From an uncultured Planctomycetota bacterium (GTDB taxonomy: Bacteria; Planctomycetota; Planctomycetia; Gemmatales; Gemmataceae), in assembly GCA_963849325.1 (NCBI GenBank), contig CAWKHF010000006.1, positions 448,001-512,000 of the forward strand: a DNA stretch of 64,000 nt, read 5' to 3'. The position numbers and the translations under genes are program-made. This document shows, piece by piece, positions 7,464 to 25,307 of this stretch (the stretch's first letter is position 1; each line of letters begins with the position of its first letter). The notes beneath the pieces were generated by a model. The model was not told the origin of the DNA, made no database searches, and saw only the letters and a program-made list of their open reading frames with translations.

Positions 7464-10246
<2,783 letters not shown>

Positions 10247-17532: not shown

Positions 17533-17819
17533 GGCTCACTCCTCCCGCGTCGGCGGGGGAACAGCGAGGTACAGAGACGGCGCTCTCCTCCCGGAGACGC
17601 GCCTCGGCGTCCGGAGGTTCCGTGACGACCCACCGTCTCGCTTCCTCCGCGCGAGTCAACGGGAATAGCGTGGGGAGACGGCGAGCAATTTCGCAATGGT
17701 CCCGTCGAGGGTTGGGAAAATGGCAGCGGTTGTTCCCCTCAACGGATCTCTTTGTGTATACTCCATGAAGAGCCTCGGCGTCAAGCACGGCCTTCCCTTT
17801 TATCTCATAATTGTCCTCC

Positions 17820-18536
17820 ATGCGCATCCTGGTCATCGCGGACATTCACGGCAATTGGCCGGCCCTGCAAGCGGTGGCGGCCGAGCCGCACGACGTTTGC
17901 CTGTGCCTGGGCGACCTGGTCGATTACGGTCTGGAGCCAGCCCCGTGCATCGGCTGGGTGCGCGACAGGGTCCAGTACGCGGTGCGCGGCAACCACGACC
18001 ACGGCGTCGCCCAGAACGTCATCGTCCAGGGCCGCGCCGGCTTCAAGTACCTGACCGGCGTCACGCGGCCGCTGACACGCGAACGTCTGGGCGAGGGCGA
18101 CTTGCGCTTCCTGTCCCGTCTGCCGGTGACGCGCCTGGTGACCCTGGACAATACGCGCTTTTTGCTGGTCCATGCCACGCCGCGCGATCCGCTCGACGAG
18201 TACGCGCCGCCCGACGTCGAGTTCTGGACGCGGCGGCTGCAAAACGTCGAGGCCGACGTCGTCTGCGTCGGCCATACCCATCAGCCCTACGTGCTGGAAC
18301 TGGGCGACAAGCTGGTCATCAACCCCGGCAGCGTCGGCCAACCGCGCGACGGCGACCCGCGCGCCTCCTGCGCCATCATCGAAGATTATAAAGTCGATCT
18401 CAAAAGGATCGATTATCCTATCGAGGACACCGTCGCCGCCATCCAGGGCAGTTCGCTGCCGGAAAACGCCAAGGACATGCTGATCGACGTTTTCCGCACC
18501 GGCGCGCCGATGCCGAATGGACAAAAGAGTTCGTAG
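17820..18536 (+). CDS. Calcineurin-like metallophosphoesterase (YfcE-like)
   Basis: ADIHGN, GDLVDYG, GNHD, VHA, GHTH, NPGSVGQPRDGD. Confidence 0.92.
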   Translation: MRILVIADIHGNWPALQAVAAEPHDVCLCLGDLVDYGLEPAPCIGWVRDRVQYAVRGNHDHGVAQNVIVQGRAGFKYLTGVTRPLTRERLGEGDLRFLSRLPVTRLVTLDNTRFLLVHATPRDPLDEYAPPDVEFWTRRLQNVEADVVCVGHTHQPYVLELGDKLVINPGSVGQPRDGDPRASCAIIEDYKVDLKRIDYPIEDTVAAIQGSSLPENAKDMLIDVFRTGAPMPNGQKSS

Positions 18537-18640: not shown

Positions 18641-20391
18641 ATGGCTGGCCGATGCTTTTACGTCTCGTGGGTGGACCTTCGCACCGATCCGTGGCCGCAG
18701 TGGGAGAAGGTCCGACCCGGCACCGGGGAGATGATGCTGGAAGGGCAACGCATCCGCTGCCTGCCGGTCGACCATCCCCACTGGCCGGCCGTCCCGCTGC
18801 TGGAGCAGGCGGGGCCGCCGATGGTGGCCGACCCGCGCCTCGGCCGCTACGTCTGGCCGGGCATCCCGCTTGTGCTCGACGGCCGACCATGCCGCCTCTA
18901 CACCGGCCCGACGCTCAGCGCCCTGTTCCATCCGGGCAGTCGATTCTGCAATCTCGAAGGACTCGATGTCGTCTACCTCTTGTATCAGCCCGAACGCGCG
19001 GACGGATCGCACGAGCTGTTGCGCAACGTCCTCGCCCGACTCTGCCAGGCCCGCGACATCCAGAACGCGGACAAGCGAATCCAGTTCGTGGACGTCAAGG
19101 GCATCGCCGACCCAACCGACCACGCCGCCATCATTCGAGCGATCGAACAATGGCTGGGGCGGGACGACCCGTTCGATCTCGGCCGCCGCGGCTCGGCGAA
19201 AAACCCGCCGCGCATCGTCATCAACCTGAGTCCGGGCACGCCGTCCATGCACGCCGCCTGGCTGATGCTGCGCTGGAATGGAGCGCTGGGCGGGCGGAGA
19301 GTATCGTCGAATTCGTCCAGGGCGACGGCGGACTGGTCGAGCGCTGCCGTCGAGGGACCGCCGCCCAACCCGCTGCGCATCGTGCCGATCGACGTGCTGG
19401 CTCAGTGGTCGGCCGCAACGGGGGCTGGCGCCGCAGCCGGCCCTCGGCCCGGAAGAACCGAGCGTGCCGCTGGAAGAGCTGAACGGCCCGCCCTTCGACG
19501 ACCTGCGCCAGAAGATCGACCACGCCGCCATGCTCGGCCTGCCGATCCTCTTGCAGGGCGAGCGCGGCACCGGCAAGACGTTCCTGGCCCACTACTACCA
19601 TCAGCGCCGACAATTCTACGCGCCTTCCAGGCGGAGCGAGGCCGCGCCGGCCAAGACCGGCGGCGCAAGGCGACGGCAAGGAGGCGATGCGAAAGGCCGC
19701 CGAACGCTTCCCGGAGAAGACCGGGCCGAGCAGCTTCGTCGGCGTCACGCTGTCGGAGTTCGCCGACCTCGATACGCTGCGCGACACGCTGTTCGGCTGG
19801 GCCAAGGGAACGCCTGGACCGGCGCCTACAAGGCGTACGACGGCCTGCTCGGCGAGGCGCACGGCGGCACGCTGTTCCTCGACGAGATCCACCACCTGAC
19901 CCGGCCGTTGCAGGCGGCGCTGCTCGGCCCGCTCAACGCCGCCGCTATCGCCCCAAGATGGCCGACCTACGAGGTCATCAGCCACTTCGACCTGGTCGTC
20001 GCCACCAACGATCCGCAAGTGGCGCGACAAGATGGCCGACGACTTCCGCGACCGCATCGAGCGGATCGTCCTGGAGGTGCCGTCGTTCCGCTCCTTTCAG
20101 CGACACGGGGCGGACATCATCTGGCGGTTCTGGGAGTTCACGCTCCGCCGCCGCTGCCGCGAGTGCGGCATCGAGTACAGCGGCGAGGGACGGGCTTGGC
20201 CGGAGTGCTGCGAGCAGCTGAAGGGCTGTTCCGACGTCACCCGCTGGCGCGGCAACTGGCGCGATCTGCAACGCCTGGCCGACAACTTGCTGCTGCATCT
20301 GACCTCGTCCCGCGACGGCCGGCCGTCGCCGATCCGCTGGGACCGCGACAAGCTGGAGCACGCCATCGCCGAGACGTTCGCGGAGACGTGA
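18641..20391 (+). CDS. Sigma54-interacting AAA+ activator (bEBP) with N-terminal CARF/RtcR-like domain and no evident C-terminal HTH (frameshifted)
   Basis: N-term VSWVDLRTDP...GPTLSAL...IADPTDHAAI...INLSPGTPSMHAAWLML (RtcR-type CARF-like). Walker A QGERGTGKT, TLFGWAKG/AWTGA (GAFTGA loop), Walker B TLFLDEI, LQAALL, VVATND, WRGNWRDL (sensor II). Confidence 0.85.
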
Positions 20392-20438: not shown

Positions 20439-21458
20439 ATGGCCAGACGTGCCGGTGTGCGCAAGGGCATTCAGAAACAGGGACAGACGCAGGTGCAAAT
20501 TCAGACCACCATGCGGCGCCGGGCCGGCGTGGAGGAACTGAGTACCTGGCAGGAGACGGCAGTTCGCCCCGGCGTTTCCCCGCGCGGCGGCGACCTGGGT
20601 TACGATGAGGAGGCGGACGGCGATCAGCTGCTCGACGACGGCGAGGAATCCGGGTCCAGCGAACCGACGGGCGATGATTGCTTCCAACCCGAGGAGTCGG
20701 ACGATGAGCCGCAAATCCGTCATCGGCTGACAGTGGCCGATCTTCTCGGTTCACGACCTCCGGTAGTGCTTCTCCGTCTGAGCCTGGAAAACGGTGCGGT
20801 CGCCGTTCGGACCTGTGCGCGACCGGCTTCGCGCGATGCCGGCCAGGCTCTGGAGCTGCTGCGTGACTTCGTGACTCGATGCTTCCAGGATGGCCGCGCT
20901 CACTTCACGGACGCCGAGTGGGACCAGCTGCTCGGCAATGCGCGTCGCCGTTGGTCCGCCGTTTAACGCTGTTGCTACGACTGGCGGTCAAGGGCCGAGA
21001 GAAGGTCCGTCTCGACGAGGAGAGCGAGGCGGCATTCACGCCGCACGACATCGGCCTGGAGCGCTTCGCCAACAAGTTCGCCGCCCTGCCGGACGGCACG
21101 CCGTTCAGCATTCGTCTGCTCTTGTTGGACCAGCGCGGCCGCGAGCGCGGCGAGCACTTCTTCGATCAACTGCCCGAACGCCGTCAAGCTCCTGGCTCTG
21201 CGGCGGGCCTTGCAGCGCGAGCGGCAAAAGGGCGTGGCGGTCAGCGACCACGAATTCCGCGACGAGATCCAGCACGCCCTCGAAGAACTGCTCGGCATGG
21301 AAGTGCCCAAGCCCACCGAAGACCAGGTGCGGCGACGCCTGCGCGACAACTTCAAGCGCAAAGGTCTGGGCGACCTCTTCCCCAACCAGGCCGCCCGCCA
21401 GCGCGAGCACGACCGGATGGCGGCGACTGCCCCCGTCCGTACCGAGGAATCCGCATGA
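20439..21458 (+). CDS. Divergent sigma54 (RpoN)-like factor, ~339 aa (two compensating frameshifts near 20940 and 21180)
   Basis: Gln-rich N-terminus (QKQGQTQVQIQTT) and acidic linker. HDIGLERFANKFAALPDGTPFSIRLLL resembles HESTISR..KY..P.G.F.LK.FF. RERQKGVAVSDHEF resembles E...PLSD..L, and FPNQAARQR resembles IP.S..R. GGAGG RBS; ATGA overlap with the next gene. Confidence 0.6.
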
Positions 21459-24400
21459 GCGCCAGCCTGCTCGCGCATGTCGGTCTAGATCTTGTCACTC
21501 CTCGTGTCGCAGCCCTGCGGCTAGGGGAGTTGACCGTCGAGCCGGTGCAAACCGTTCTCGGCCGCGCCGACCTGGCGGGTAGCTCGCGCCCACTGCCATC
21601 TAGTGCCGTGCTCTTGAGGCTCGGCGATCAGTCGTTGTGGCTGCCCGCACCAGCCGCACCAGCCGCGCCGTCCGAGCCGGACGAAGGCCGAGCACCGATC
21701 TATCTGCACGGCGGACAAGAACTCGTCCTGCCCTTCGTCCGTCTCTTCGTTCTCCAAGCCGACCAGGAACCGGACAAGGCACGGGTCGAATACCTGGGTC
21801 TGTCCGATTGGTTGGACGACGCCGTTGCCGTGTGGCGCTTCGAGCCGGCACGGCGGGATGGCTCCCCCCGTCCGCTGCTGGACCATCTCGAACAAAACGC
21901 GACTTCGCCGGCCGAAGCCTTGCAAGCGATCAGCCGGGTACTTTGTTTCGCCTTGTTTGGCGCGGCAAGCCCGGCCGTGGTCGGTGGCCTGCGTCTGCCC
22001 GCCTGTCCGATGTGGCTCCGCCCCGTAGGAGAAACGCCATTCGCGCGCCGTATCGCCCGCGCGCTGGTGGTCACTGCTCGCCTCTCGGCCGATCCCGCCA
22101 AACCGACCGTGCCCTCCACGAACTTGCGGACATCGGCCTACCGCATTCGCCCCGCCGAGCCGCGCGATTGGGGTCTCGATCCCGTCCACACGCCGGAAGG
22201 CGCCGACATCCGCCTGACCGGCCGACTCGGCGTCGGTGTCGCTGTGCGCGGCCGGGCGCTGCACGCTCCGGAGACGGAACGGCCGCCGTTGTCGGCGTCC
22301 ACGGCCCGGCTGCCGTTCGCCGGCTACAACGACCCTCGCCGTCTGCTGATGGCCGCCAACATGCAGGCACACGCCGTGCCCCTGCCGCGACAGGAACCGC
22401 CTTGCGTCCGCATGACTCCCGAAGCGGATGACCCGCCCGGCGTCAACCTCCGCGTCGGCTACCTCGCCTGGCAGGGTTGGAATCACGAGGACGCCTGGGT
22501 GCTGTCCGAATCCGCAGCCCGGCGTCTCGGCACGCTCCAGGTTCTGGTGCAGACCATCGCCATCCGTGCCGTCGAGGTGGCTCCCGATCTGCTGGTGCAG
22601 TGCGGCCAGCCGGTCGAACGTGGCCAGCTGCTCGTCCGTCGTTTTGTGGCCCCGGCCTTGCTCTGCCCGTCGCTGGAACTGCTGGCGACGCTGGAAGACC
22701 TGGACGACAAGGTACCGCTTCGGCCGGAGGTCGATGACTCGGCTGCGGAGAGCGGCACCATCATCCGGCTTGAAGAATGGGACCTGCGCGACCGGCGCGG
22801 CCTTCCGATAGACTGGCAAGTGCCGGAAGCGGTGGCCGGGGCATTCCGGACTGTTTATCGCATCCACATCGAACGCGCGCTGCCGCTGAGCGTTGGCGAC
22901 AAGCTGGCCAACCGGCACGGCCACAAGGGCGTCGTCGGCGCCATCCTGCCCGATGACGACATGCCGCGCTGGCGCGGTCGGCCGCTGGAAGCCCTGATCG
23001 ACCCGATCAGCGTCCTCAACCGCTCTAACTGGGGACAGGTCTACGAGGCACTGGCCGGGGCGCTGGTGGAGCCGGGTCAGGTGCGCGACGTCAACGGTGT
23101 CTCCGGCGAAGAGGTGCGGGCGGAGGCACAACGGGCAGGGGCCGACGCACAGGGCCGTTGGCTCATCGAGCCTCCGATGGCGGCACGCTGGTTGACGAAG
23201 GAAGTGCGCGCCGTCGCCGGTGTCCAGTACGTCATGCGGATGCCGCATCACGCCGCCGACAAGATCTCCGGCAATCCTCCACCGCCGCCATCGTTGGGTT
23301 ATCGGGTGCGCCGCCGATCGCAGCGGCTAGGCGAGATGGAGCACTGGGCGCTGTGGGCGCACGGCATCGGTGCGCACGGCCTCCTCCGCGACCGAGGACG
23401 GCGGACAGAGGGCGCTGTCTCCCGCCGTGGCCCGTCTTCGCCGCTTGCTCGGGTCGGCCGGGTTCGGCATGGACGTCGAGGGCGGATCGCTGCTCGTTCG
23501 GAAGCTGGCGCTCGACGCGGAGCCACCCGCTGATAACAAGATATTATCTCTCCTTAAAGAGAATGAAACAAGCACCGCGGAGAGCGGCGTGGAGGGAAGC
23601 AAGGAAACGAAGTCCCCGCGATCCCTGGCCGAACTCTACGACGCCCTGGATGCGGTCGCGCCCGAAACGCCGACCGTACTCGTCTTCGATCCGCCGCTCC
23701 TCCGCCCATCCAAGGGGGATGACGTCGAGGTGGCGCTGCGCTGGATGCCCGTGTTGCCCGCCTGCGATCGCCCGCCGCGGCGTTGGTTCGACGGCTCGGA
23801 GGAGCCGCACGAATTGACCGCCGACCTGCGCCGCCTGGTCCGCCTGATTCGCAAACGTCGGCAAGCGCGGACGGAAGACGAGGACGCCGCCAACGCGGAA
23901 CTGTTCTACGCCGCTCGCCAGTTCCTATCCGATGCCTACATCGCGGCGGTAGGGCGCGGGGCGACCGGCCCATTCAGCAGTAAACTGGCTTACTTGCGTC
24001 GCGGTGTGCTGGGGCAGCGCTTGCCCCGCTCGGCACGGGCGACCGTCTCTCCCGGCGGTACGCGGCGTTTGGGACTGGACGAAATCGGTCTGCCGCCGGC
24101 GCTGGCCCACACTCTTTTCGGGCCAGGACTGCCGAGCGAGGAAAACCAGTTGGCCGAGGTCGTCGCCGGCCGCTGGGTGTGGCTCAAGCGCGATCCGGTA
24201 TTGCACCGCTGGGGTCTGCTGCCGGTGCGCGTCCGTGTCGTACCCGGCGTCACTATCCGCCTGCCGGCGTCGCTGCTGGGACCGCTGGGGGCCGATTTCG
24301 ACGGCAACACGGTCGCCCTCTTCGCCGCGTTGCCCGGTGCCCTCGCCGACCTCCACGCCTGTTCGCCGCCGGCGCTCGCCTGGCACCCGTTGCTCGACGA

Positions 24401-25307
24401 AGCCCTGTTCCAACCGAGCAAGCAGTATCAATACGGTCTTTTCCTTTTGTCACAAAGCAGAGAGCAAAAGGAACGATTGCAACTGGCGTTGCAAGCCGAG
24501 GGCGCCCTGACTTGGCCGGATGAGTCCGACCCCAAAAGGGCATTTTCAACCTGGGTCCGTCAGGCCATCCAGCAGGGACCGAAAGGACATTGGTGGGCCA
24601 TCCTCGAAGTATACGCCCTGCACGCCCTGGCCGACGATCCCGCGATGGGCTTCGGCCTAGGTGACGTGGACGAACTGGCGCGGTTGCCGGTGGTCCGTTG
24701 CGGAGCGGCCAAGGATCTGTATGGCGGTGTCGAGCCGCCGGCGTCCCCCGCGGCGCGGACGGACTGGGAGCGAAACCGGAAGGCGATGGCGGACATCTTG
24801 CACGGACAAAGCCTGACGATCTATCGGCGCCGCGGCGATTTGGGCGATCCTATCGCCGACGTCATGGTCGCCGCCAAGGCGTCCATCGGCCAGTTCGGCG
24901 GCGCCCTGCGCCGGCTGGTGTACTCCGCGGACCATCTTCGACCCGAGGACATCCAAATGGCCCAATGTCTGACCGAGCAGGTCACGCAAAAGGCGCTGAG
25001 CGTCAAAGCGGGCAAGCCTCCGCTGTTGTACGCCGACTTCGAGCGGCAGCTGCGGCAACTGCTCAAACGGCAAGAGTTGAATGAATCCGAGCGGGAGAAA
25101 CTGCAAACGCTGCTGGCTGAGATCGGCAAGAAACTGGAGCCGGTCTGGACGGCTTTGGGTTCGTTGATGCCGAGCGAACCCAAAGCCTGGTTGGAATGGC
25201 TGCGGAAGCCGCACGAATTGGACGAACTCGTCGCGGCGAAGGGCGAGATTCGTCTGCCGCTGGACGATTTACGCTTACGCGCGTTCCTGTCGGAGCCTGA
25301 AGCGTAA
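21455..25307 (+). CDS. Minimised two-barrel RNA polymerase, beta-like plus beta'-like, probably one fused ~1,280-aa polypeptide (frameshift near 23370-23400)
   Basis: Beta motifs: DPVHTPEG, NDPRRLLMAANMQAHAVPL, GVNLRVGYLAWQGWNHEDAWVLSES, VGDKLANRHGHKGVV, DPISVLNRSNWGQVYE, YVMRMPHHAADK, SQRLGEMEHWAL. Beta' motifs: MPVLPACDRP, LRRGVLGQR...SARATV, LKRDPVLHRWG, GADFDGNTV, PSKQYQYGLF, QFGGALRRLV (bridge helix), AQCLTEQVTQ (trigger loop). Confidence 0.9.

Follow-up and report, generated by a model that had tools for sequence, protein, structure and literature searches.

A candidate sigma54-like initiation factor encoded between a CARF-AAA+ ATPase and a fused mini RNA polymerase in a planctomycete genome

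A three-gene cassette with interrupted reading frames

The window, by which we mean the whole stretch of 64,000 nucleotides analysed here from an uncultured member of the Planctomycetota (family Gemmataceae), carries on its forward strand a cassette of three genes, flanked by housekeeping or polysaccharide genes. The first gene (18641–20391) encodes an ATPase with a CARF-like N-terminal domain and an AAA+ domain of the sigma54-activator type, and the third (21455–25307) encodes a fused beta-beta' RNA polymerase of ~1280 aa. The gene between them (20439–21458), hereafter called the target, is the subject of this study. All coordinates refer to the window and all features lie on its forward strand.

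In the target gene, frame 0 was open from an ATG at 20439 to a TAA at 20964–20966 and again from ~21177 to a TGA at 21456–21458, and between these two stretches a protein-like reading was found in frame 2 only. The frame switches of the GC3 signal coincided with these changes. When the gene was compared with a family profile built from 35 intact homologues, profile positions 5–163 matched 20448–20945 in frame 0, positions 164–248 matched 20945–21190 in frame 2, and positions 242–327 matched 21171–21434 in frame 0, the three pieces being colinear. The homologue P0002 (342 aa, 64% identical to the target) crosses both junctions in one frame.

At the first break (20943–20945, frame 0 to 2), where the profile pieces abut at 20945, the window was one base short compared with the intact homologues, and a single frame gives LLG-xxx-A/S-PLxRRL in P0002 and other homologues. 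At the second break (21176–21179, frame 2 to 0), one extra base was found in 'gaac' after CCC (Pro); here the homologues read LP-D/x-A-V-K-L-L in one frame, and the profile pieces overlap at 21171–21190. The region 20439–21458 most likely encodes one intact protein of ~340 aa, read in frames 0, 2, and 0, and the single protein proposed in the initial annotation agrees with the intact homologues reading straight through both breaks. A reading as three separate small genes was ruled out because the homologues are single ORFs.

The first piece of the target (20439–20945, frame 0, approximately residues 1–169), defined by its translation, the profile match at 5–163, and its phmmer relatives, begins with a basic, Gln-rich helix (~20460–20543) that includes the Gln-rich run IQKQGQTQVQIQ (20469–20504). 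It continues with an acidic disordered linker (~20544–20730) containing DLGYDEEADGD (20592–20624), and LLGSRPPVVLL (20742–20774) marks the start of an ordered alpha/beta domain. The extents of the helix and of the disorder were taken from AlphaFold2 (AF2) models of homologues. The second piece (20945–21178, frame 2; translation and profile 164–248) encodes the remainder of the middle domain, including the invariant family motif KFAALPDGTPF (21074–21106), a predicted polymerase contact; the P-D-G of its ALPDG core was invariant in alignments of 35 and of 53 sequences. The third piece (21177–21458, frame 0; profile 242–327) encodes a C-terminal helical helix-turn-helix (HTH) domain, which the fold matches described below place on the RpoN domain of sigma54 (model residues ~240–330). 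It contains AVKLLALRRAL (21180–21212), the putative recognition helix RRRLRDNFKR (21330–21359), and FPNQAARQR (21378–21404), and its stop codon (21456–21458) overlaps the polymerase ATG at 21455. All motifs quoted in the initial annotation (KFAALPDGTPF, RRRLRDNFKR, FPNQAARQR, and the Gln-rich and acidic stretches) were located in the window, and the N-terminal Gln/Arg-rich helix, acidic disordered linker, and C-terminal HTH region that it described are present.

The upstream ATPase gene is read with ~4 frame shifts (frames 2, 0, 1, 0, 1) and carries Walker A (GERGTGKT, 19557–19580), Walker B (LFLDEIHH, 19872–19895), and sensor II (GNWRDL, 20251–20268) motifs. It matched Pfam Sigma54_activat at 1e-16 in the window and at 4e-19 to 5e-27 in intact homologues. 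It also matched the PADLOC profile RtcR_PspF1--CARF_AAA_HTH (2e-56, profile positions 19–389 of 468, with the HTH end unmatched) and NCBIfam RtcR (8e-23, 81 bits against a cut-off of 650). The GAFTGA loop of bacterial enhancer-binding proteins (bEBPs) is nearly invariant, and such activators normally need a DNA-binding domain. The cassette ATPase differs from sigma54 activators on both counts. Its L1 loop reads LFGWAKG/WTGA (19789–19826) in place of GAFTGA, G?WTGA in alignment with five homologues that have GSWNLA, NAWNLA, GSWTGA, KSYTGA, and KTVTDV, and the homologue alignment left no residues for a DNA-binding domain beyond sensor II.

RtcR, a CARF-AAA+-HTH protein, activates the sigma54-dependent rtcBA operon for RNA repair. 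The upstream gene resembles RtcR and the 'RtcR_PspF' CARF group in its layout of a CARF-like sensor and an NtrC-type AAA+ domain, but the cassette has no rtcA or rtcB nearby, and its ATPase has a factor and a polymerase of its own as partners where RtcR has the host sigma54.

The polymerase gene is interrupted once, near 23365, where the reading passes from frame 2 to frame 0; its relative P0072 aligned through residues 1–650 in frame 2 and 616–1323 in frame 0. Pfam matches to RNA_pol_Rpb2_6 (1e-22) and Rpb1_2 (2e-11) were obtained, and the motifs GDKLANRHGHKG (22895–22930), GEMEHWALWAH (23330–23362), and ADFDGN (24291–24308) were located. Its homologues are single chains of 1150–1400 aa. PMC2919709 and PMC5467207 describe fused or reduced two-barrel RNA polymerases. 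Like YonO of prophage SPbeta and the yeast killer-plasmid Rpb2::Rpb1 fusion, the cassette enzyme is a shortened single chain of beta and beta' with both double-psi barrels, but the latter two are carried by a phage or a plasmid, and no sigma54-like factor or AAA+ activator is described for them. No relatives of the cassette polymerase were found in phage and plasmid collections, where only rpoB-like segments matched.

A rare family and its gene neighbourhood

A phmmer search of 1.84 billion cluster representatives gave 45 proteins matching the target at E<=1e-3, of which 37 were 275–422 aa long, with the first piece of the target matching their N-terminal half. With 45 relatives, 37 of them of similar length, the target gene is not just an ORF that arose by chance. 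Intact homologues had 310–360 aa. A profile search of a 5.8-billion protein set recovered 35 family members, all of them unnamed and lacking a Pfam domain, and yielded no sequence bridging the family to sigma54. The target itself had no match in Pfam, NCBIfam, or PADLOC, and in the ESM Atlas it met only unnamed clusters (at most 0.90, recognition below the mark). As judged from these searches, the family is rare and unnamed. It was found in one of 401 phylum genomes searched, which was the window's own, and that genome held no paralogue. In viral contigs, 50 stretches fitted the pattern and none was confirmed.

Members of the target family are usually flanked on one side by a CARF + AAA+ ATPase that has no DNA-binding domain and on the other by a fused beta-beta' mini polymerase. 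Eight distinct loci were compared, with L024, L025, and L026 being the same locus and counted once. The AAA+ gene lay directly upstream of the target in six of the eight (the window, L022, L023, L024, L027, and L029) and not in L028 and L078. Downstream DNA was visible at six loci; the fused polymerase was directly downstream in four of them (the window, L024, L027, and L029) and not adjacent in the other two (L022 and L078). Four further target/polymerase pairs were apparent contig-mates, and in genome G441 all three genes were present on three different contigs. Among the compared loci, no flanking gene was conserved beyond the trio, and there was no conserved cargo gene. No description of a trio of target, ATPase, and polymerase was found in the literature searched. 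The initial annotation had invoked a bEBP and a reduced polymerase, and the neighbours of the target are indeed an AAA+ ATPase of the bEBP type and a polymerase of reduced size.

Comparison with sigma54 and a possible role in initiation

The target had been described as a cryptic sigma54-like factor, and sequence comparison gave no sign of such a relationship. Neither the 35 family members nor the three window pieces matched Sigma54_AID (PF00309), Sigma54_CBD (PF04963), or Sigma54_DBD (PF04552) at E<=1. Profile alignment with hhalign of the family against 9 and against 25 sigma54 sequences gave probabilities of 0.2–0.7% and scores of 19.2–22.2, which lay within the range of column-shuffled controls (mean 15.2, sd 2.7, maximum 22.2, n=40), so the profile link is not significant. 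The sole local alignment, itself non-significant, landed on the RpoN-box HTH. A PDB sequence profile search with the family returned only ArsR (E 0.17) and TrpB (E 0.64). The expected profile similarity to RpoN domains was thus missing (Pfam 0/35; hhalign as above). The absence of the RpoN box (ARRTVxKYR) reported in the initial annotation was borne out, since no such box was found in the window or in the family consensus. A helix reading xxx[V/I]xxLRxxLKRxGL occupies the equivalent place, a placement taken from the non-significant hhalign alignment and from the fold match 2o9l_A (Z 4.2, 63 aligned residues).

The predicted fold had sigma54 as its best match, at modest scores. AF2 models of P0002 (pLDDT 84.2, pTM 0.74) and, as a replicate, of P0037 (pLDDT 81.1; 31% identical to P0002) were compared with 48,161 PDB cluster representatives (chains). 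For P0002, the first match was Aquifex sigmaN (5ui5_V; Z 6.0, rmsd 6.0, 161 aligned residues, model 109–324 on chain 204–397) and the second was sigma54 (8re4_M; Z 5.0, 166 aligned), with only 48–87 residues of the C-terminal domain aligned in the matches listed at ranks 3–50. For P0037, 5ui5_V again ranked first (Z 5.4, 157 aligned) and 8re4_M third (Z 4.7, 158 aligned) of the 48,161. In second looks, rows 1–14 for P0002 were all sigma54/sigmaN (Z 5.2–7.0, with the next row at Z 4.2), many spanning model residues 16–330 on sigma54 11–477, and rows 1–18 for P0037 were all sigma54/sigmaN; these rows represent two or three distinct proteins that have been solved repeatedly. The middle domain of P0037 alone aligned to sigma54 270–403 (9q96_M; Z 6.1, rmsd 3.6, 88 aligned).

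In both predicted models, sigma54 is the best PDB match, comprising the region I helix, the ELH-HTH, and the RpoN domain, with the core-binding domain skipped. VIA Z values of 5.4–7.0 are in the range that the tool calls 'middling', with ranks 2–3 tied with generic winged-helix rows, and such modest scores do not establish homology with sigma54. Foldseek returned nothing at E<=1e-3 against the PDB (best sigma54 row E 0.7) or against BFVD. The C-terminal domain also matched many unrelated winged-helix/HTH proteins at Z 4–4.7. Chains of sigma28 and sigmaA matched it at Z 4.5–4.7 over 52–53 residues, in the C-terminal domain only; Sigma70_r2 and Sigma70_r4 had no Pfam match in the 35 members, and in these models the sigma28 and sigmaA matches appear to show nothing beyond a general HTH resemblance.

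The order of modules in the target resembles that of sigma54: a regulatory helix, an acidic disordered linker, a long helix with an HTH, and a C-terminal three-helix DNA-binding domain. In the models, a helix at residues 8–35 (pLDDT 87–95) is followed by a disordered acidic stretch at 36–98, and several fold alignments place residues 16–35 onto sigma54 from residue 11 onward. The composition of this helix is Arg/Gln-rich, unlike the Leu/Gln-rich region I. The ordered chain then runs from the end of the linker (~residue 98) directly into the segment that aligns to sigma54 267–405, which leaves no ordered stretch of the size of the core-binding domain, and no PF04963 match was found among the 35 members. 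This domain covers residues 120–250 of sigma54, about 130 residues, according to passages of PMC5095919. What had been called a much shortened core-binding domain is better described as absent, and a family-specific alpha/beta element with ALPDG is the predicted contact instead. The proposed sigma54-like domain order is supported in part, by the predicted fold and the order of modules, and is not supported by the sequence profiles or by a core-binding domain. The target further differs from sigma54 in having no detectable sequence similarity and no ARRTVxKYR box, and in its middle domain, which in the AF2 models carries beta strands that are absent from the sigma54 ELH-HTH, together with the invariant ALPDG motif.

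The interaction with the polymerase was predicted for P0011 and residues 245–925 of its contig-mate P0080, a slice of the polymerase and not the whole enzyme. Three runs gave ipSAE values of 0.81, 0.82, and 0.83, and the best of three controls gave 0.00; of 80 solved complexes, 58 attained the mark for this score, as did 2 of 110 mismatched pairs, counts that are only rough with our own alignments. The runs shared at least 62% of their contacts, and the partner pLDDT was at least 75. On the target side, the lowest-error contacts were made by the invariant ALPDG motif. On the polymerase side, the interface involved residues 379–473 (between NHEDAW and GDKLANRHG), 688–697, and 744–768 (the clamp-helix region). 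The ALPDG motif is thus predicted to sit on the flap-like and clamp-helix elements of the polymerase. Passages of PMC5095919 name the flap and clamp-helix regions as docking sites of initiation factors on cellular polymerases (sigma54, sigma70). The partnership with the reduced polymerase suggested in the initial annotation is in line with this prediction (ipSAE 0.82 against 0.00 for the control).

Taken with its position beside a Sigma54_activat-family ATPase, these observations led us to consider that the target probably serves the mini polymerase as its dedicated initiation factor of a sigma54-like kind, with gating by the AAA+ ATPase. Like sigma54, it is predicted to touch flap-like and clamp elements of a two-barrel enzyme, but its partner would be a private fused beta-beta' polymerase and not the host core. 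The middle alpha/beta-plus-helical domain would dock via ALPDGxPF on the reduced flap-like insert and the beta' N-terminal/clamp-helix region. The C-terminal HTH domain, at the position of the sigma54 RpoN domain, would read DNA with a different helix ([D/E]x[V/I]xxLRxxLKRxGL). The N-terminal basic/Gln-rich helix would pack against the long helix in the way that region I of sigma54 packs against the ELH, and with the acidic linker it would hold the complex closed until the upstream ATPase remodels this state, presumably once a nucleotide or RNA-end signal is bound by the CARF domain of the ATPase. DNA binding by the target, ATPase gating through its N-terminal helix, and the nature of the CARF signal and of the transcribed genes are the steps that we infer. 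The new promoter specificity put forward in the initial annotation is plausible, but no promoter was found: no dyad, 8-mer, or promoter motif of note was shared upstream of five cassettes.

A stronger version, which we put forward only tentatively, is that the target is a far-diverged sigma54 descendant that has no core-binding domain and whose DNA-reading helix has been rewritten, and that, with the CARF activator and the single-chain polymerase, it makes up a second transcription machine in bacterial chromosomes, self-contained and gated by a signal. If this version is true, the region I/ELH-HTH/RpoN module of sigma54 and its ATPase gating would be portable to a non-canonical polymerase. To our knowledge, sigma54 on the five-subunit core enzyme of the host is the sole case in which initiation is gated by an ATPase. 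The target combines a sigma54-like shape, without recognisable sequence, with a genetic tie to its own activator-type ATPase and a half-size single-chain polymerase. CARF sensor domains are of a kind used in antiviral signalling. If the model of a dedicated initiation factor holds, bacteria can carry a compact, private three-gene transcription system of ~6.7 kb that is switched on via a CARF sensor. This would have a bearing on sigma54 evolution and provide a minimal, tractable system for the opening of a closed promoter complex by an AAA+ ATPase. A family left 'hypothetical' by every current annotation library would also gain a name, if the model holds.

A different view of the same predictions is that the target binds the mini polymerase or the ATPase as a structural or assembly subunit, or as an inhibitor removed by the AAA+ ATPase, and not as a specificity factor; the C-terminal HTH-like bundle would then be a generic protein/nucleic-acid module and the sigma54 likeness a common helical arrangement. 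The complex model speaks to binding only and not to function, which leaves room for such a role, and the middling fold scores (Z 5.4–7.0), the fit of the C-terminal domain to unrelated winged-helix/HTH proteins, the missing promoter motif, and the absent sequence link to sigma54 all suit it. We nevertheless consider it unlikely. Colinear coverage of two or three modules, over 157–213 residues and in two models, is seen for the sigma54 rows alone, and the predicted contacts on the flap-like insert and clamp-helix coincide with docking sites of initiation factors. In addition, the polymerase needs a specificity factor, and the cassette offers no other candidate.

The cassette in its host genome

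Both frameshifts in the target are almost certainly, or at the least very probably, assembly indels and not biology. In the same genome, the host rpoB was split over four frames with 3 shifts in 3.8 kb, and leuS, within the window, fell into at least four frame pieces. The cassette had 7 shifts in 6.7 kb (four in the AAA+ gene, two in the target, and one in the polymerase). Since rpoB and leuS are broken at a density similar to that of the cassette, the breaks are a property of the assembly, which consists of 14 contigs with a marker completeness of 84.7%. The initial annotation had presented the gene as hidden by two compensating frameshifts; the frame changes are real in the data, but the hidden look of the gene is very probably an assembly artefact.

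If the breaks were real, the target and the whole cassette could be a decaying pseudogene relic in this genome. The number of breaks across the 6.7 kb and the restriction of the family to one of the 401 phylum genomes would be in keeping with decay. The invariant third catalytic Asp of the polymerase reads Asn (DFDGD to DFDGN), and if that base call is correct, the polymerase encoded here may be inactive. In the relative G020, the cassette has clearly decayed: a remnant of the CARF part and a polymerase gene interrupted by an in-frame TAG are left, and the target is missing. We regard such a relic as very unlikely here: the essential rpoB and leuS are about equally broken, the assembly is of limited marker completeness, and at the residue level the target retains 45 of the 47 columns conserved at >=80% in the family and the polymerase 188 of 189 conserved columns.

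The host also has a sigma54 of its own. A six-frame search of the genome with PF04552 found only the canonical rpoN (1e-57, contig C5), and canonical rpoN was present in 61 of 61 phylum genomes searched. The target could be a cofactor or substrate of an RtcR-like ATPase that acts on the host sigma54 holoenzyme, with the cassette being a sigma54-dependent operon and the target having no role with the mini polymerase. RtcR-type CARF-AAA+ proteins are described as sigma54 activators in passages of PMC4012209, and at L022 no polymerase adjoins the target and ATPase genes. We consider this arrangement very unlikely as well. The ATPase has no DNA-binding domain and an altered GAFTGA loop, no TGGCAC-N5-TTGC-like site was present in the cassette intergenic regions or upstream of the cassette, and the canonical sigma54 pattern, of the -24 GG / -12 GC type, was not enriched across the whole window, where 30 matches were counted with up to 2 mismatches allowed and 25.65 were expected. 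The predicted complex with the mini polymerase passes its controls, and G441 retains all three genes though they are unlinked, both of which count against this arrangement.

Programmed ribosomal frameshifting that regulates production of the full-length protein is extremely unlikely: the second break does follow a CCC-G context, of a type known to favour +1 slippage, and in the family record P0003 the match to the family likewise ends at this codon, directly behind 'FFDQLPD', but 35 of 35 aligned members read both sites in one frame, a slippery heptamer is absent at the first break, and housekeeping genes of the same assembly are broken likewise. As a practical consequence of the assembly origin of the breaks, genes that look hidden by frameshifts, as the target does in this genome, are easily lost by gene callers.

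Reading frames of the target gene

The target, encoded at 20439–21458 (+ strand), is a real, single gene. Frame 0 stays open between the ATG at 20439 and the TAA at 20964–20966, and then again from ~21177 to the TGA at 21456–21458. Between these two stretches only frame 2 gave a protein-like reading, and third-position GC changed frame at the same break points. A phmmer search of 1.84 billion cluster representatives with the first 175 residues yielded 45 proteins at E ≤ 1e-3, 18 at ≤ 1e-10, and 5 at ≤ 1e-30 (the window's own counted), and 37 of the 45 were 275–422 aa long with their N-terminal half aligned to the query. The nearest relative, P0002 (342 aa, 64% identical), was encoded in a single frame across both breaks, and its sequence matched the second and third pieces of the target. 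A family profile, A1, was built from 35 of the 45 matches, leaving out the window's own protein (P0001), a frame-broken one (P0003), and fragments or outliers (P0006, P0010, P0012, P0029, P0034, P0040, P0044, P0045). It matched the window in three abutting pieces, with profile positions 5–163 in frame 0, 164–248 in frame 2, and 242–327 in frame 0. Because these pieces abut in three frames and P0002 reads through both breaks, the ~340 codons form one gene, as the initial annotation had proposed. The peptides it had quoted were all located on the + strand: the Gln-rich IQKQGQTQVQIQ (20469–20504), the acidic DLGYDEEADGD (20592–20624), KFAALPDGTPF (21074–21106, frame 2), RRRLRDNFKR (21330–21359), and FPNQAARQR (21378–21404).

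The breaks lie near 20943–20945 (one base short) and near 21176–21179 (one base extra in 'gaac'). They had been taken for compensating frameshifts that hide the gene, a view that did not hold: the broken look is almost certainly an artefact and the breaks a property of the assembly. The assembly (8.16 Mb, 14 contigs) has a marker-gene completeness of only 84.7% and an indel rate of ~1 per kb. The housekeeping gene rpoB of the same genome (contig C1, 334925–338629) runs through four successive frames when compared with the intact 1258-aa RpoB of a relative, i.e. three breaks in 3.8 kb. Within the window, the essential gene leuS (7467–10246, − strand) falls into at least four frame pieces that overlap and carry, in turn, the N-terminal part of tRNA-synt_1, the editing domain, the C-terminal part of tRNA-synt_1, and the anticodon-binding domain. 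Across its 6.7 kb the cassette has seven breaks, of which the ATPase gene holds four, the target two and the polymerase gene one, a density close to that of the housekeeping genes. Its residues are undecayed, with 45 of the 47 target columns conserved at ≥80% kept in the window (the misses being the start Met, an alignment gap, and an L to V change), as were 188 of the 189 polymerase columns conserved at ≥90%. Since rpoB and leuS are broken at about equal density and the residues have not decayed, the cassette breaks are attributed to the assembly. In P0003 the family reading was lost right after 'FFDQLPD', at the same codon as the second break of the window, and was followed by Ser/Gly/Arg-rich off-frame text; the two breaks may share an error-prone context (CCC-GA), or the coincidence may be chance.

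The target family had no Pfam, NCBIfam or PADLOC model, and sources that name it call it 'hypothetical protein'. Among 401 genomes of the host phylum it was found only in the window's own, and no member was confirmed in viral contigs.

The neighbouring ATPase and polymerase genes

The gene directly upstream (18641–20391, + strand) encodes an AAA+ ATPase with a CARF-like N-terminal domain. The PADLOC model RtcR_PspF1--CARF_AAA_HTH matched it at 2e-56, over profile positions 19–389 of 468 only. An alignment of five homologues showed a CARF-type NLSPGT motif, Walker A (GERGTGKT), Walker B (LFLDEIHH), and sensor II (GNWRDL), and left no room after sensor II for a DNA-binding domain. The L1 loop, GAFTGA in enhancer-binding proteins, was instead GSWNLA, NAWNLA, GSWTGA, KSYTGA or KTVTDV in the five homologues and G?WTGA in the window, where it spans a frame break.

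The downstream polymerase is one fused gene with beta-like and beta'-like halves (21455–25307, + strand), which appears as two genes in the ORF list only because of a frame break near 23365. Its homologues are single chains of 1150–1400 aa with both PF00562 and PF00623. Non-canonical two-barrel polymerases are treated in PMC2919709.

We surveyed eight distinct target loci (L025 and L026, near-copies of L024, were not counted separately). A gene with a CARF-like N-terminus and a Sigma54_activat AAA+ domain lay directly upstream of the target in six (window, L022, L023, L024, L027, L029) and was not there at L028 and L078. Of the six loci with visible downstream DNA, four (window, L024, L027, L029) had a single-chain beta-beta' polymerase (~1300 aa) as the next gene downstream, and two (L022, L078) did not. 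No other conserved genes surrounded the trio across the loci compared. In genome G441 the trio was intact on three different contigs (polymerase L012; target L078, 5943–6911; ATPase L079), with the polymerase adjoining prfB and the target between scpB and a DUF1501 gene, both housekeeping surroundings, and these neighbours resemble genes of the window's phylum. An intact but unlinked trio points to a functional tie that goes further than a shared operon. A same-family relative, G020, carried a decayed copy (L011, contig C288, 3581–7896), in which a 155-aa CARF remnant immediately adjoined a fragmented polymerase that carries a TAG interruption; neither an ATPase domain nor, within the 13 kb of contig examined, a target was found.

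A YfcE-type metallophosphodiesterase (Pfam Metallophos_2, 2e-24; NCBIfam yfcE, 2.5e-18) is encoded 104 bp upstream of the cassette on the same strand (17811–18536, +), with no counterpart at the other loci compared. To connect it with a cyclic nucleotide as the signal of the CARF domain would be speculation.

Comparison with sigma54

By every sequence criterion the target stands outside the sigma54 family. None of 35 family members matched Sigma54_AID, CBD or DBD at E ≤ 1, and a PDB sequence search retrieved no sigma54 chain. Comparing the family by hhalign with two sets of sigma54 proteins (9 from the order of the host, 25 spanning the phylum) gave probabilities of 0.2–0.7% and scores of 19.2–22.2, the highest equalling the maximum of 40 column-shuffled controls (15.2 ± 2.7, maximum 22.2). 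In three of four unshuffled comparisons the best local alignment, which carries no statistical weight, set the family helix 'TEDQVRRRLRDNFK' against 'ARRTVTKYRKLL', the helix of the RpoN box, as the initial annotation would have it. The RpoN box, previously described as rewritten, is indeed not there, and the core-binding domain is missing altogether rather than shortened; both are defining parts of sigma54. The host genome has its own canonical rpoN, a gene present in 61 of 61 genomes of the phylum searched.

Structural comparison gave a modest, positive and reproducible likeness between predicted models of the target family and sigma54. The AlphaFold2 model of P0002 (no templates, 35-sequence alignment; pLDDT 84.2, pTM 0.74) comprised a long N-terminal helix (residues 8–35), a disordered acidic stretch (36–98), an alpha/beta-plus-helical middle domain (99–232), and a helical C-terminal domain (241–332). 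Foldseek against the PDB found nothing at E ≤ 1e-3, with seven sigma54 entries in the first 42 rows. In an exhaustive alignment to 48,161 PDB cluster representatives, Aquifex sigmaN on promoter DNA ranked first (Z 6.0, rmsd 6.0, 161 residues, model 109–324 against 204–397) and sigma54 in a transcribing complex second (Z 5.0, 166 residues, 100–324 against 269–472). The remaining rows listed covered the C-terminal domain (48–87 residues), including an isolated RpoN domain at rank 11 (Z 4.2). On re-alignment of the Foldseek list, rows 1–14 were all sigma54 chains (Z 5.2–7.0; next row Z 4.2), the many sigma54 rows being two or three proteins solved repeatedly. Many paired model 16–330 with sigma54 11–477, i.e. 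the region I helix, ELH-HTH and RpoN, skipping region II and the core-binding domain. A replicate model of P0037 (31% identical, 53-sequence alignment, pLDDT 81.1) placed sigma54 representatives at ranks 1 and 3 of 48,161 (Z 5.4 and 4.7; 157 and 158 residues); rows 1–18 of its re-aligned Foldseek list were all sigma54. Its middle domain alone matched sigma54 270–403 (Z 6.1, rmsd 3.6, 88 residues), although sigma54 is without the strands found in that domain.

These scores are modest (Z 5.4–7.0), and by the aligner's own guidance unrelated models commonly score Z under 8. The match gains weight because the sigma54 hypothesis, set in advance from the gene neighbourhood, topped the ranking twice and was the sole multi-domain colinear match.

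Predicted polymerase contacts and proposed mode of action

We predicted the complex of P0011 (a 313-aa target homologue) with residues 245–925 of the polymerase P0080, giving family alignments for both chains. P0080 is apparently the contig-mate of P0011, as both come from contigs with a length of 19,127. The ipSAE values were 0.81, 0.82, and 0.83 (best of three controls, 0.00), with at least 62% of contacts in common and partner pLDDT of at least 75. When the tool was calibrated, 58 of 80 solved complexes reached this ipSAE mark, as did 2 of 110 mismatched pairs; with user-supplied alignments these counts are only approximate. Such a result is unlikely to echo a solved structure, because no similar complex is known for the partner. 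The lowest-error contacts on the target side were the invariant ALPDGxPF motif and neighbouring strands. They faced P0080 379–383 and 406–432 (an insert between NHEDAW and GDKLANRHG, in the place of beta's flap and wall), 688–697, and 744–768 (helices ahead of the beta' barrel, at the clamp-helix position). On this slice of the enzyme, the target is predicted to bind the mini polymerase through its ALPDG domain.

Given its predicted shape, its partners, and the predicted seat on a private polymerase, the best-supported reading is that the target is probably a sigma54-like, ATPase-gated initiation factor. Common descent with sigma54 is possible, if rather doubtful. A signal would bind the CARF domain of the ATPase; RtcR-like CARF proteins are covered in PMC4012209, where RNA ends or nucleotides are proposed as the signal for RtcR-type domains. 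The AAA+ ring would act on the N-terminal helix of the target and on its acidic linker, in analogy to region I of sigma54. The domain boundaries and contacts of sigma54 used here follow PMC5095919. The ALPDG domain would hold the target on the polymerase while its C-terminal HTH may be set on a promoter, and remodelling by the ring would then permit opening. No promoter or conserved cargo was found for the trio, and a full-text literature search returned no description of it.

Two features of the polymerase chains were also observed. In the window the beta' catalytic motif reads ADFDGN (24291–24308; codon AAC at 24306–24308) instead of the ADFDGD shared by all 29 family members in the alignment, the sole mismatch among the 189 conserved columns. 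Either the base call is wrong or the Mg-binding Asp has truly been changed and this copy disarmed. P0072, the polymerase paired with P0002, has three tandem 'PSLARRANGGED' copies with partial copies at both ends in its clamp-helix region (~825–880), and these copies are missing from the other polymerase members.
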